A stretch of DNA of 64,000 nt from an uncultured Nitrososphaerales archaeon (GTDB lineage: Archaea > Thermoproteota > Nitrososphaeria > Nitrososphaerales > Nitrososphaeraceae), in the NCBI GenBank assembly GCA_963841565.1, contig CAWJCY010000009.1, positions 1 to 64,000 of the forward strand, read 5' to 3'. Shown one piece after another: positions 4,554-47,354 of this stretch; the first letter of the stretch is position 1; each line of letters begins with the position of its first letter. The notes under the pieces were generated by a model. That model was given only the letters and a program-made list of their open reading frames with translations. It made no database searches and was not told the origin of the DNA. The position numbers and the translations under genes are program-made.

Positions 4554-5234
4554 TTGTTTGGTTTAGGAAAGCGGCTAGACAATAGTAAAGAACTAGCTAT
4601 GAGAACAAGTGAAAAATTTTCAATACAACCACTCAGCAGTGACGATATGGGCGAGATTAGAAAAATTCAGGACGTACTAAATCCTGATGAGAACGTGATA
4701 ATTGTTGCTCGTCAATCAAGAATCTTGCCTGGAGGTTCCTACGTTACTCCTAATACTATTTACGCGACTGAAAAGCGGTTAATTATTAGAGACCCGTATA
4801 TGTTAGGCATAAAAGAAAACCTAATCGATATCCCTTATGATGTTGTTACAAGCATTAAGCTTGAAAAAGGATTGTTCTCGTCTACTATAAGATTCGAAGC
4901 TCCTGCCTTAGTTGGTTCCAAAAGGTTAGGTATGATACATGGCATAATTCACGGTAACAATGATCATGAAGGAGTGATACAAGCGATTCCGAAAGCGAAG
5001 GCAGAAGATCTAATAGAAGTAATACGGTTTGGAATGCATCAAAAAGGAATTGAAGGATCTCACAATACTGAAAAAGAGAATTTCTCCGCGTTAGCCCTCA
5101 AGTCTAATCAAATAGGCAGTTATTCAATTGCGGATGAATTGACCAAACTTATTAAACTGAAAGAACAAGGAGTATTGACTGGGGAAGAATTTGACCGCAT
5201 CAAAAAAGATCTTCTAGACAAGAAAGTGAAGTGA
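4554..5234 (+). CDS. bacterial PH-domain protein with C-terminal SHOCT domain
   Basis: TIYATEKRLII...IPYDVVTSIKLEKGLFSSTI (bPH-like); SIADELTKLIKLKEQGVLTGEEFDRIKKDLL (SHOCT). Confidence 0.85.
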   Translation: MFGLGKRLDNSKELAMRTSEKFSIQPLSSDDMGEIRKIQDVLNPDENVIIVARQSRILPGGSYVTPNTIYATEKRLIIRDPYMLGIKENLIDIPYDVVTSIKLEKGLFSSTIRFEAPALVGSKRLGMIHGIIHGNNDHEGVIQAIPKAKAEDLIEVIRFGMHQKGIEGSHNTEKENFSALALKSNQIGSYSIADELTKLIKLKEQGVLTGEEFDRIKKDLLDKKVK

Positions 5235-7083: not shown

Positions 7084-8968
7084 TCCTTTTTTGAGCTCAA
7101 ATGCTAAGATTCAGTAGTGCTTTGAGGTTTAATCCCCTCAGATAATATGCTTAGATTATTGTAAATTCATAAATTGAAGTGGCGCTATTAAAAAGCAATT
7201 CGGTCAGGTAGCAGACAATCCTGAGTTGATGGCAGGTACTAGCAGATCATCTAATCAGGTAATTTAGAAACCACGGTATTTCTGAAATTTAAGTGACTAG
7301 AAAATATGTTACCCAAATGATCGCCTGCATTAGAAATTTGGGTTCTATACCTATGAATTACTTCTGACAAATTGGATATTGCTAGGCAGATACTACAAAT
7401 AATTCTACATTTGACCCGAAGTGCATATTGGAAGCCAGCGCATTATAACGAACTCCTTAAGGGCAAGGTCACTAAATTGTGCTTGATGGGAAAACAAGTT
7501 GTAGTGTAAGGCATCTTTTTATTTTCGAATTCGTCAAACCATGAGTTTTAGGAGCTCCTTCACCCCTGACTTGTTATTCTAGTTCATTCGTCGATGAGTC
7601 AAATAAGTATGAATCCGTACTTTTACTATCTGCTTTAAGGATTCTAGATCTAAATTCAAAATGTGTAATTCATAGATTTACTATCATGTTAAATTTTTAG
7701 TGTAAAAGTCTTGGCGCGTTAATTGAGCTGTAATAAGCCCTTGAATGACATTGACATAGGTGGGATTCAACCTTGAATCTGGATATGCCAGATCATCAAC
7801 GACGGAAAAATCTTCAAGTTTAGGACAGTTTTTAACATCGACATCAATCACAACCCTGAAAGTTTCGTTAAATCCTGCATTTAGATTTCGACTACTGACA
7901 TCAAAGACATGGGATGACGGAAGTGCGCGAGTTATAGTGATGTTTCTTTCGGGGCGCGGGCTATGGTTTTAACCGCAGTCTGAGCTCCGCTAACAGCAAA
8001 GATAGGAGATTGAGTTGACGAAAGGGAACTGACTGCCCTTTTCTCATAGCGGTGTTTCCTGTACCCCCTGTTAAATTCTGCAGGCAAGACCTCATGTATC
8101 CATCGAACGGTTATCAACCTTTTATTGATTTCATCACCTAGCATCTTCTTAATGACGCTGCTACTCTGCCATTTTTCACAAATGTGTAACGTTTGGAGTT
8201 CCTTTGCTATGTCCAATACTAGATTAGAGGCAAAGTTCTACTATGTATGGAGTCTCTCAGTTCCATCACCATTCACTCCAAGGATCTCCTGTTTGGTTTG
8301 GATGGTGCAGGTTCTTCACTCATCTTTATATATCTTCTATCACTATTTTATAACATATTTATTACGTATTGTTCTATTGTAATATATCTAATATAAGTAC
8401 TGAAAGAATGTTAAATGGACAGTTCTTCCCTAGGTGAGCCGCTGAGATAAGGTATAGCAAAAAAACGAGACCCTAACTGTAGTGTAAGGAGTTATATTTT
8501 TTGGTATTATTTTGATACGCTATACATGAATTCAACAACCCCTCATGCCTGATGCTTGATACAATTTATGAGCATATTCTAGAAGCATGCCCTGAAGGAT
8601 ATTTTAAGAAGCTGTATTCATCCTAATAGGATAAAATGTCTCAGTTAAGGCGGATTTCTGGCTGTGACAATAAGTATATCAATCTTTAATAACCGAGGCG
8701 ACGTGTAAATCGATATCAAAATTTAAACTTCATTGACGACTAACCCTCAATGCCAGGCAAGTAAACCGGATAGATTGGGAAGATTGGACATGGACTGAGA
8801 CGAAGAGATCTCAGAGTGACTTAAAGCAAGGCAAAGCGTTAGTTATTAAACCTTATCGTTTCGACTTTCATCTAGATAAGATGATTGTGATTCATCATGA
8901 TTCCTTACAGATGATGGCTACGAAAAGGCATTAAGCATCTAGTTTGTTGCTAATTTCAGCTTTAATCC

Positions 8969-45197: not shown

Positions 45198-45314
45198 TTA
45201 TTTGTGATTTTTGTCGTAATGCATGATAAATTCCGTATCACTCTCGAATACGACGTTGCATTTGCTACACATTACAGGTTCCTCGTTATTTTCTCTATCT
45301 CTATTATCCAACAT
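45198..45314 (-). CDS. 38-aa C2H2 zinc-finger microprotein
   Basis: MLDNRDRENNEEPVMCSKCNVVFESDTEFIMHYDKNHK*; TTTATAAA upstream at about 45351-45358. Confidence 0.75.
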   Translation of the reverse strand: MLDNRDRENNEEPVMCSKCNVVFESDTEFIMHYDKNHK

Positions 45315-45679
45315 GACTCGAATCCCTCTTCTACAAAATAGAAAAAATCGTTTATAAATATTTCACTGCTTGAAACAAAATAGGGTGAAACCCATAGTTG
45401 ATGTACGCATAAATCATTCAATGAAGGACATAGTTAAAACACTTCCGCTCATTGTAGTCATCGGGGCGATTCTTATTCGGGCCAGAGTGGTATTACCTCT
45501 CATATAGCATTGTAAAAGATTATTACCCCAGCTCAATAACATAGTTGTCTTGACTGACAACGTTGACAATCCTGACACACGCCATCTAGGGAAACATTTT
45601 GTAAATGCATTATACCACTTCATCTGTTCAGAATCAGTCAAATGCTGAGCGTGAATTTGCAAAAGTGTTCAAAATATAT

Positions 45680-45748
45680 TGTTAACATTTACAAATTATG
45701 TAAACATTTTTTCGTCGTGTTAACAAAATCTGTTAACGGTTGTAAACG
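45680..45748. promoter_or_regulatory. array of five TGTWAAC boxes
   Basis: TGTTAACA 45680, TGTAAACA 45699, TGTTAACA 45718, TGTTAACG 45731, TGTAAACG 45741. Confidence 0.5.
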
Positions 45749-45916
45749 GGCTTATTTTGTCAAAAGAGGTTCAAATTGGCGTTTTTTATTACAGTAGACT
45801 AATGTCGTAGAAATTGCTGCCAATAACTAACGATTGCTAAACTATTAAGATCGACTATAAGATTTTGCTTGAAATAGCGAAAATACCCTTCATCCATCAG
45901 TGGGGTCTGAAGTCTT

Positions 45917-46032
45917 ATCTCCTGCATGTAAGAGGCTCTTTTTGGCCAGTCCCGTATTTGGCCTTTCCTCTCTACCTCAATTGTGCTTCGGGGAACGGGA
46001 CCGAAACCCGCTGCACCATTTATGCAGGAGAC
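45917..46032 (-). ncRNA. candidate novel structured ncRNA: three-way junction with kissing loops
   Basis: 11-bp closing stem, two hairpins with complementary loops GUCCCGU/ACGGGAC; G-U pairs favour the minus strand. Confidence 0.6.
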
Positions 46033-46053
46033 TAAAATTATAAGCAAACTTTG

Positions 46054-46061
46054 TTTAATAA
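46054..46061 (-). promoter_or_regulatory. TATA box for the candidate ncRNA
   Basis: TTATTAAA on the minus strand, ending 21 nt before the 5' end of the stem; fits archaeal promoter spacing. Confidence 0.45.
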
Positions 46062-46237
46062 TGCTTACCCTGTCTGGATTTCTCCTATAATAATACGATA
46101 CCTTTGTGTCAGAAAATATATGAAACTGTTCTAATCCATTTTTTCTCGACATACTCTGAACTGTATGTACGAACAAATCTCAGACGAATTTGTTAAGCAT
46201 ATATAGCATAAATTCATAACTAACTACAGGAATTCCT

Positions 46238-46690
46238 ATGGTATTTCTTGGCAAAAGACATCTTCATCTCCCTGAAAGCGATCACATTGTAGACGGACTA
46301 ATTGGGCTATTGAGCTCAGCAAATTCAGGGTCTATAAAACTGGATTTTGCCAGCAAACCAGCTGCAGAAATCGGCATCTATGGTAAAGATAATCACGACA
46401 ATAGCAGCAAGAAGTGGATCAAAGTAGATCTGTTGGAACCAGGTCTTTTTAAGCTCCAAGATGACGATCTCAGTTTATTCGACAAATTGAGAAGTGCTAC
46501 AGAATTCGCTCAAAAATTGTCTGATAATATGCTAACCTTATCGTTATTAAGAAAGGGTAAAGAAGCAATCACATTGGGGGAAGGGGCTCATCCATCGTTT
46601 TCGAGACTAATCACGAGAAGCGATGATATTCAGGTAAATAGTTTGAAGGAATCAACCAAATTAAGGGAGGATTTCAAAGACGAAGATTAG
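46238..46690 (+). CDS. hypothetical protein
   Basis: 150 aa ORF with ATG start and AT-rich upstream sequence. Confidence 0.7.
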   Translation: MVFLGKRHLHLPESDHIVDGLIGLLSSANSGSIKLDFASKPAAEIGIYGKDNHDNSSKKWIKVDLLEPGLFKLQDDDLSLFDKLRSATEFAQKLSDNMLTLSLLRKGKEAITLGEGAHPSFSRLITRSDDIQVNSLKESTKLREDFKDED

Positions 46691-47354
46691 AGGATTCGAT
46701 CTCCTCTTGTTAGAAATTTAGAAATTTAGTGAAGTTTTGAATCCCACTACTATCGAATATGCTACTTTCTCTTTGATGAATACTTTATCGATGGAATGTT
46801 AAACAGACAATGCATATTCGGAGGCTGTGTGATGAAGTATAATCCTTCATAGAAAAAAATTAGATAGGTCATTTCTTGAACCTATGGCTAAGAGCTTTAG
46901 TTAATGAAATTATATCGATAATATTAAATGACTCATTTACAATAATAATAGTGAGATCGATAAATAGCCCGCTAAGGTTTCTCGTTGTTACCGATTGCTG
47001 ACCAATAACCATTGCAAGAAGTTAGAGTCCCAGCTGATTGTGATATTAGTTATACCAATTGAATATCCCATGGTCAATACTCTCTCATCTAGTGCAACAT
47101 CAATAATTTGTAACTACTTGCGATCGATTACTTGAATTGTATTGTAGAATAGTAAATGTCTCATGCTGGCCTTTGATCGATAACATCGTTGATATTGATC
47201 AGATAACGCAAAATTACTGCATTTAAAGACGCAAATGGATCAAATAGAATAGTTTTGTCAGATAGTGATGGTTGTCCATTATAGTTGCATTAATGTTCAA
47301 CTTCTAAAGTTAGAAAGGAGCCCAACATGGAGATTTATTTGTTCTTCACCAATA

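Follow-up and report, generated by a model that had tools for sequence, protein, structure and literature searches.

A conserved three-way-junction RNA with kissing loops in Nitrososphaeraceae, probably a new RNA family

The window analyzed here is a 64,000-nt stretch of an uncultured Nitrososphaerales archaeon (GenBank assembly GCA_963841565.1, contig CAWJCY010000009.1, positions 1 to 64,000). At 46032..45917 its minus strand holds a structured RNA of about 116 nt, which is a three-way junction with two arms joined by a 7-bp loop-loop (kissing) helix. Support for the element comes from its fold, a covariance-model score of 140 bits and covariation among its homologues; the RNA of this family is about 116-126 nt long. 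It matches no catalogued family and is probably a new functional RNA; we regard it as a new family whose architecture follows a known theme. The explanation that we cautiously favour is a free-standing structured RNA gene of an uncatalogued family, whose invariant nucleotides would be displayed to a partner. The genome from which the window comes (the source genome) holds two copies of this gene.

Structure and covariation

A three-way junction closed by two complementary loops had been proposed for this stretch from its sequence alone, and both folding and comparison bear this architecture out. The minimum free energy of the element is -43.5 kcal/mol, compared with -31.4 +/- 3.3 kcal/mol for 200 dinucleotide shuffles (z -3.7, none as good). 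Since the plus strand folds equally well (z -3.85), the strand cannot be read from energy alone. Instead, the assignment of the RNA to the minus strand follows from the excess of G-U over A-C cells in the homologues (191 vs 58) and from the TATA-like box upstream; the G-U argument was originally made for three pairs. As had also been pointed out, the element is a GC-rich island, with a GC content of 0.48-0.52 vs about 0.28-0.36 in the flanks.

The fold was assessed in two alignments. The first (A2) is a plain MAFFT alignment of 30 homologues from 31 loci; the remaining locus, L026, has a copy without the P3 arm and was excluded. With the structure including the pseudoknot imposed on A2, 92.7% of the cells are paired and 15 pairs have changes on both sides. 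None of 500 column shuffles was as good, and partners slid by 1-3 columns gave 40-50% pairing. The second alignment (A3) comprises 101 model-aligned matches, 83 of them distinct, found by searching 100 of 136 loci; it is fitted to the nested helices and hence favours them. For the 83 distinct sequences the paired fraction is 92.2%, and double changes occur at 30 of 37 pairs (330 such cells), again with none of 500 shuffles as good. Eight weak matches below 60 bits (L026, L047-L051, L054, L055) are part of the A3 covariation counts and were dropped from the counts of conserved positions, TATA-like hexamers and oligo-T stretches.

Helix P1 is made from the two ends of the RNA. Its 5' strand GUCUCCUGCA (46023..46032, minus) pairs with the 3' strand UGCAGGAGAU (45917..45926, minus), and an extra pair extends it to GUCUCCUGCA(U) at 46032-46022 and (A)UGCAGGAGAU at 45927-45917, giving a length of 10-11 bp, in line with the 11 bp of the original prediction. 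In A3, 83.7% of P1 cells are paired and all 10 modelled pairs show double changes.

P2 is interrupted by a 3x3 internal loop, which is paired in one clade. Its 5' strand (46007..46016, minus) consists of GUG (46016-46014), 3 nt of the internal loop and CGGG (46010-46007), and its 3' strand (45983..45992, minus) of CCCG (45992-45989), another 3 nt of the loop and CAC (45985-45983). The outer helix GUG/CAC, 97.1% paired in A3 and with double changes at 3/3 pairs, preserves the essence of a GUGC/GCAC pairing that had been listed as an alternative. The inner part of P2 is ambiguous. GUUUCG/CGAAGC, the helix preferred at that time, is 84% paired and lacks covariation, and it competes with CGGG/CCCG, which is 96% paired in the same comparison (89.5-95.8% over A2 and A3) and nearly invariant. 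It is because CGGG/CCCG hardly varies that the ambiguity persists. We also considered lengthening P2 with AA/UU pairs between the junction strands, but dropped this because the positions between them do not covary.

The revision of P3 is more substantial. P3a adjoins the junction with its 5' strand GGUAGAGAGG (45967..45976, minus), and its 3' strand CCUCUUACA (45927..45935, minus) leads directly into P1, so that J3/1 is 0-1 nt long. The covarying register is GGUAGAGAGG/CCUCUUAC, continuous with P1; in A3 its halves are 90.8% and 96.3% paired and 9/9 modelled pairs have double changes. This register replaces the lower P3 helix GAGGU/GCCUC proposed earlier, which is 78% paired, shows no covariation and has one pair broken in 20 of 30 homologues. 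The upper helix, proposed as GGCCA/UGGCC, is retained in its core: P3b, GGCC (45960..45963, minus) with GGCC (45944..45947, minus), is 99.4% paired in A3 and has double changes at two pairs. Between P3a and P3b lies an internal loop with an invariant AAA bulge (45966-45964, minus) opposite an 8-nt A-rich strand (45943-45936) of the pattern nAnAanAG. A K-turn was considered for this loop and rejected; visual inspection shows no fit to the K-turn consensus, and the 3' strand of the loop varies (AAAAAGAG, GAAAAAAG, GAUAAUAG).

P2 closes a 14-nt loop and P3b a 12-nt loop, and these present the strands GUCCCGU (45995..46001, minus) and ACGGGAC (45949..45955, minus), which are perfectly complementary over 7 bp. 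The kissing helix is absent from the search model behind the alignment, and it is 96.5% paired in A3. Compensatory changes are found at three of its seven pairs, namely G-C to A-U (4 rows), U-A to C-G (4 rows) and C-G to U-A (32 rows). Conservation is not confined to the helices: at 23 of the 50 unpaired consensus positions it reaches at least 97% (75 distinct strong sequences). The junction strands are J1/2, an A-rich AAAnG, and J2/3, YuAUU followed by two bases.

In the resulting structure, P1 stacks directly on a long bent arm made of P3a, the A-rich internal loop and P3b, P2 leaves the junction, and the 7-bp pairing of the loops of both arms locks the fold. Since P3 is much longer than P2, the internal loop presumably bends P3 back, thereby letting the loops meet.

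Phylogenetic range

Homologues were sought with a covariance model (R1) built from the element and its homologues. The model has matches in 107 of the 151 genomes of the window's family (77 of the 103 high-quality ones) and in 16 of its 18 genera, with 1-8 matches per genome. The order's 19 other families, represented by 127 genomes, gave no match, nor did 150 further genomes sampled from the phylum. An exact degenerate pattern, run against one genome per species (185,579 species), picked up 101 stretches; among the matches listed, 80 in number, all belong to records titled Nitrososphaeraceae, Nitrososphaera, Nitrosocosmicus, Nitrososphaerales or 'Thermoproteota archaeon' metagenome-assembled genome (MAG). 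A similar pattern had no match in 2.9 million viral contigs. Judging by these searches, the RNA is confined to one thaumarchaeal family, Nitrososphaeraceae according to the titles of named records. Two unpublished genomes (G035 and G077) contribute rows L006 and L028, enter the family counts and supply one of the 13 adjacency cases discussed below; no result depends on them.

BLAST searches in the window's family gave matches in 54 of 101 genomes. Beyond the genus, the similarity covers the promoter box and the RNA only, starting at the TATA box and stopping at the last P1 base. The second copy in the source genome, found by BLAST on contig C12, is related to window positions 45538-46025 over 489 columns with 84.9% identity; about 380 nt downstream (45538..45916, minus) have been duplicated along with the RNA and lie outside the family-wide conserved unit. 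The C12 copy carries changes in part of P1 and at two of the seven kissing pairs, and it scores 96.7 bits vs 140 bits for the copy in the window.

Promoter and transcription

A TATA box 21 nt upstream of the RNA was part of the original prediction. It is found as TTATTAAA at 46061..46054 (46054..46061, minus), followed by 21 nt and then by G46032, the first P1 base. When 77 distinct loci are aligned on this base, a T/A-rich information peak emerges between -28 and -22. Of these loci, 47 have a TATA-like hexamer whose first base is at -28 to -26, and 64 have one anywhere from -40 to -20. The box is thus presumably the promoter of the RNA. Archaeal promoter spacing would place the transcription start at or next to P1, and the RNA would accordingly be transcribed from a promoter of its own, beginning at or beside its first helix. 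On the 3' side, oligo-T after P1 is not enriched: a run of five or more T occurs within the first 50 nt in 13 of 73 loci, vs 4-16 of 73 in later 50-nt windows.

A search of sequencing runs with 45890-46060 returned 12 runs, three of which (X4, X5 and X6, from three studies) are on record as RNA; each of the three contains 0.17-0.33 of 12 sampled words from the element. Assembled contigs were aligned to 45300-46700 at 85% likeness, and one contig per RNA run falls on the element, with depths of about 3. These contigs, from runs labelled metatranscriptomic, are 90-95% alike to the window and cover 45916-46065 (X4, 11 differences), 45939-46065 (X6, nine) and 45913-45986 (X5, four). Such RNA libraries may contain DNA, and the contigs show neither strand, start nor end.

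Free-standing gene or leader

To characterize the gene context, the nearest downstream open reading frame (ORF) of at least 90 aa was recorded at 87 distinct loci. It is on the same strand at 14 loci within 300 nt and at 25 loci further off, and convergent at 21 loci within 300 nt and at 12 further off; at the other 15 loci none was found. In the window there is no such ORF for about 1.1 kb downstream of the RNA, and in G079, a one-contig genome, a convergent ORF ends 22 nt past the RNA. A dedicated leader would show a different pattern. Given this variety of contexts, and with a same-strand ORF inside 300 nt at no more than 14 of the 87 loci, we favour a free-standing RNA over a leader.

The largest cluster of neighbour proteins consists of Rieske proteins (17 ORFs). 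Most of them are about 380 aa long and, according to Pfam, have a Rieske [2Fe-2S] domain fused to an NADPH-dependent FMN reductase domain (Rieske-FMN_red). At E<=1e-40, this gene is present in 77 of the 151 family genomes, and in 13 genomes from five genera it has a copy of the RNA no more than 1.3 kb away, in four orientations; the gaps are approximate, being taken from match coordinates, and same-contig cases are biased towards neighbours. The RNA is upstream on the same strand in six genomes (G014 and G273, 3-4 nt; G076, 57 nt; G035, 63 nt; G049, 268 nt; G038, 279 nt), downstream on the same strand in three (G056, 153 nt; G255, 183 nt; G232, 281 nt), convergent in three (G054, 12 nt; G089, 263 nt; G082, 312 nt) and divergent in one (G008, 1293 nt). 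Five other genomes (G048, G079, G090, G001, G234) have the two on one contig but 12-464 kb apart; in the remaining genomes they are on different contigs, at a distance that cannot be judged. Since copies of the RNA recur beside the Rieske-FMN reductase gene in changing orientations, we propose a connection with this redox protein. The adjacency hints at such a link, and the changing orientations, taken as a lead, are easier to reconcile with a functional link between two genes that are transcribed separately than with a leader.

The strongest alternative is a cis-acting, ligand-sensing leader, i.e. a riboswitch, in which binding of a metabolite or ion at the junction would stabilise P1 and regulate the downstream gene. 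Its ancestral target might have been the Rieske-FMN-reductase operon, with read-through control elsewhere, including antisense into convergent genes. We consider this a real possibility, though a less likely one. A P1-closed three-way junction with loop-loop-tied arms and many invariant unpaired bases is the architecture of several riboswitch aptamers, and 23 of 50 unpaired positions are invariant here; P2, moreover, contains two mutually exclusive pairings. Co-oriented upstream placement is met in a subset of cases (G014, G273, L094, L103, L031). The gap between the end of the RNA and the Rieske gene match is 3-4 nt in G014 and G273, and that between the RNA and the start of the following ORF is 5-7 nt in L094 and L103; in five further loci an ORF of 75 aa lies within about 20-100 nt after the RNA. 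The lack of an enriched terminator after P1 points the same way. However, same-strand ORFs of at least 90 aa within 300 nt are limited to the 14 loci already mentioned and 21 loci have a convergent ORF at this distance, the downstream genes are heterogeneous, and all four orientations occur beside the Rieske gene. In the leader-like loci, a Shine-Dalgarno-like GAGUGA after P1 is not sequestered by P1. Finally, the context suggests no ligand, and no Rfam riboswitch model matches. The element had been assigned to an undescribed thaumarchaeal class of non-coding RNA, riboswitch or ribozyme. It is indeed conserved, structured, family-restricted and uncatalogued, but at most loci the context argues against a typical cis-acting riboswitch.

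Several observations weigh against a free-standing gene with its own role. In six of the 13 Rieske-linked genomes the RNA is directly upstream on the same strand, which is the arrangement of a leader; one clade has it exactly, and together with the lack of a terminator this keeps a read-through or riboswitch mechanism alive as a rival. As oligo-T is not enriched after P1, the RNA may lack a discrete 3' end, and read-through downstream is possible. The contigs from X4 and X6 extend upstream past the TATA box, and that from X5 continues 132 nt downstream into unlike sequence. The association with Rieske-FMN_red is limited to a minority of loci, and in the source genome neither copy of the RNA is near the Rieske-FMN_red gene, which is on contig C8; an unfiltered search for a remnant of the RNA beside that gene gave nothing above 8.8 bits. 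It should also be kept in mind that related genomes are not independent, and genome counts therefore overstate the support.

Other explanations

A self-cleaving or otherwise catalytic RNA would be a quite different proposition, and we regard it as very unlikely. Hammerhead ribozymes are three-way junctions with loop-loop contacts, and some genomes carry several copies of the RNA, up to eight matches. Yet no Rfam ribozyme model matches at E<=10, and the hammerhead core motifs are missing from the junction strands (AAAnG, YuAUU and a J3/1 of 0-1 nt). Dispersed self-cleaving ribozymes are also unlike an RNA that has a promoter at constant spacing and, in most genomes, one or two copies. The ribozyme part of the original assignment thus becomes improbable, given this promoter and the lack of a known catalytic core.

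Even harder to credit is a piece of a repeat or mobile element, or a protein-coding stretch, without an RNA function of its own. Such an origin could be suggested by the duplication together with about 380 nt downstream, by the 1-8 copies per genome and by a 125-aa ORF (45799..46176, minus) that reads through the whole RNA element. Across genera, however, only the promoter and the RNA are conserved. The changes are compensatory rather than codon-like and include 1-nt indels, and the spanning ORF has no Pfam match. The viral contigs mentioned above gave no match, and neither terminal repeats nor transposase genes were seen among the clustered neighbours.

Comparison with known RNA families

The original prediction saw no consensus of a known family in the element, and the Rfam searches agree. 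In Rfam 15 the whole window has no match at gathering score within the element or elsewhere. At E<=10, the region 45600-46400 yields six chance matches, the best of which is HOTAIR_2, a model without pairs, at 21.7 bits vs a gathering score of 60. General descriptions of the purine riboswitch, the Alu domain of signal recognition particle (SRP) RNA, the hammerhead, the K-turn and 5S rRNA, together with the negative Rfam scans, are the basis on which the element is compared with these RNAs.

The purine riboswitch (RF00167) has a similar plan: P1 closes a three-way junction, parallel arms are tied by loop-loop pairing, and junction nucleotides are conserved. RF00167 is not matched, however, either at gathering score or at E<=10. 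The arms of the present RNA are much longer and unequal, P3 has an asymmetric A-rich internal loop, and J3/1 is 0-1 nt. The loop-loop helix of purine riboswitches has a few Watson-Crick pairs, compared with seven here, and the present RNA is archaeal and mostly without a downstream gene. No purine-metabolism family was found among the 18 neighbour proteins scanned with Pfam, three window ORFs included.

The SRP Alu domain (RF01857 for archaea) likewise has a three-way junction and two hairpin loops that pair together. The present RNA, in contrast, does not belong to an SRP RNA of 300 nt, and the element gives no match to the model; the SRP RNAs of the source genome are elsewhere, both full-length (C4:7750-8060, 104.6 bits; C12:343044-343355, 99.4 bits). 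Lysine and cobalamin riboswitches share a bent long arm whose internal loop brings kissing loops together, a feature that in our case is deduced from the arm lengths. They have five- or four-way junctions, as opposed to three-way here, and there are no shared conserved motifs and no Rfam match.

With 5S rRNA (RF00001) the RNA has in common a size of about 120 nt, a terminal helix made from the ends, three arms and one purine-rich internal loop. 5S rRNA is without a loop-loop helix and is universal, whereas this RNA is absent from the 127 and 150 genomes searched outside the family; the true 5S rRNA gene of the source genome is at C7:118961-119079 (66.6 bits). Finally, Y RNA with Ro, the raiA motif RNA and OLE RNA offer a parallel of another kind, namely a separate transcription unit, strong covariation, numerous unpaired bases that do not vary, and a neighbour gene that recurs without being obligatory. 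There is no sequence or model similarity to any of them, the neighbour here is a Rieske-FMN-reductase fusion, and the RNA is archaeal and restricted to one family.

Despite the size and three arms shared with 5S rRNA and the loop-loop pairing also present in the purine riboswitch and the SRP Alu domain, divergent membership in a known family (these three, a tRNA-like RNA or Y RNA) has next to no likelihood, given the negative Rfam result, the 5S and SRP RNAs located elsewhere in the genome, no tRNA call by ARAGORN within the window and no Ro/TROVE protein (PF05731) found in the source genome, which is 88% complete. Taken jointly, a ribozyme, a known family and a non-functional repeat claim only a small share of the probability.

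Possible role

If the RNA is a free-standing gene, it might act as a rigid scaffold on which the invariant nucleotides of the junction and internal loop are displayed to a protein or small-ligand partner, and not as the leader of one given mRNA. The partner, or the process served, may be connected with the Rieske [2Fe-2S] / NADPH-FMN-reductase fusion protein. As for an antisense role, a blastn-short search of the RNA against the source genome found nothing complementary beyond 14 nt (E 0.66).

A more specific version, which we advance with considerable reserve, is that the RNA serves ammonia-oxidising archaea as a sensor or cofactor: either a first, lineage-native class of riboswitch type or a partner or regulator of the Rieske-flavin reductase. 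In the riboswitch-type version the competing P2 pairings would constitute the switch, and the output would be read-through from the RNA's own promoter.

To our knowledge, very few structured non-coding RNAs are known in archaea besides universal and guide RNAs. Full-text literature searches, within the texts that they cover, gave no description of this RNA, and supplementary lists of predicted RNAs could contain it; nor did they give any structured non-coding RNA of this kind for the soil ammonia oxidisers that drive nitrification. Passages of 10.64898/2025.12.03.692013 name only the SRP and RNase P RNAs of Nitrososphaera viennensis, and a term look-up in 10.64898/2026.10.21.760802 gave no occurrence.

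A covarying fold, invariant unpaired bases and a narrow, consistent range are the hallmarks seen before the discoveries of bacterial riboswitches and of RNAs of ribonucleoprotein particles. The Rieske [2Fe-2S]-FMN reductase neighbour provides a testable lead. Moreover, since the RNA occurs in named enrichment or culture records, such as that of Candidatus Nitrosocosmicus agrestis, its expression, ligand or protein binding and structure are directly testable.

Copies and neighbouring genes

The 380 nt or so shared by the two copies in the source genome (45538-45916, minus, and L002:1614-1986 on contig C12) are about 85% identical and contain GTTAAC-centred inverted repeats. No ORF in this segment is conserved between the two copies, and part of it is alike in two genomes of the same genus (L005, L006). 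A small ORF after the RNA, beginning MDEGYFRY, was considered and rejected; it is limited to the two copies of the source genome, and its frame is broken by a 1-nt indel.

A 150-aa ORF, at 46238-46690 on the plus strand of the window, is divergent from the RNA. Conserved next to the RNA at five loci of this genus, it matches nothing in Pfam. Another genome of this genus (G023) has, adjoining the 150-aa ORF and thus in the same syntenic place as the copy in the window, the RNA copy without the whole P3 arm (L026:1474-1558, 85 nt, 58.9 bits).

One clade shows a recurrent gene order. An alanine dehydrogenase-like gene and an ORF of about 100 aa, divergent from the RNA, are followed by the RNA, optionally by Rieske-FMN_red, then by the 75-aa ORF and by convergent uvrC and uvrA. 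The 75-aa ORF, on the same strand after the RNA in one clade, forms a family with the core motif APFVLGTAALEM...SLARVAQI that has no Pfam or NCBIfam match; it is found at L100:5099-5326 (minus), also in L041, L046, L082 and L106, and in L030 near 2826.

The presence of two SRP RNAs in one bin (88% completeness, 4.4% contamination) might reflect either a real duplication or two strains. The Rieske-FMN reductase orthologue of the source genome (C8:53658-54641, L158) has an in-frame TAG, and several of its relatives have a single in-frame stop as well. At locus L081, two copies of the RNA (4941-5062 and 7548-7673) flank two opposite-strand genes, one for an FAD-oxidoreductase-Rieske fusion and one for a small Rieske protein.

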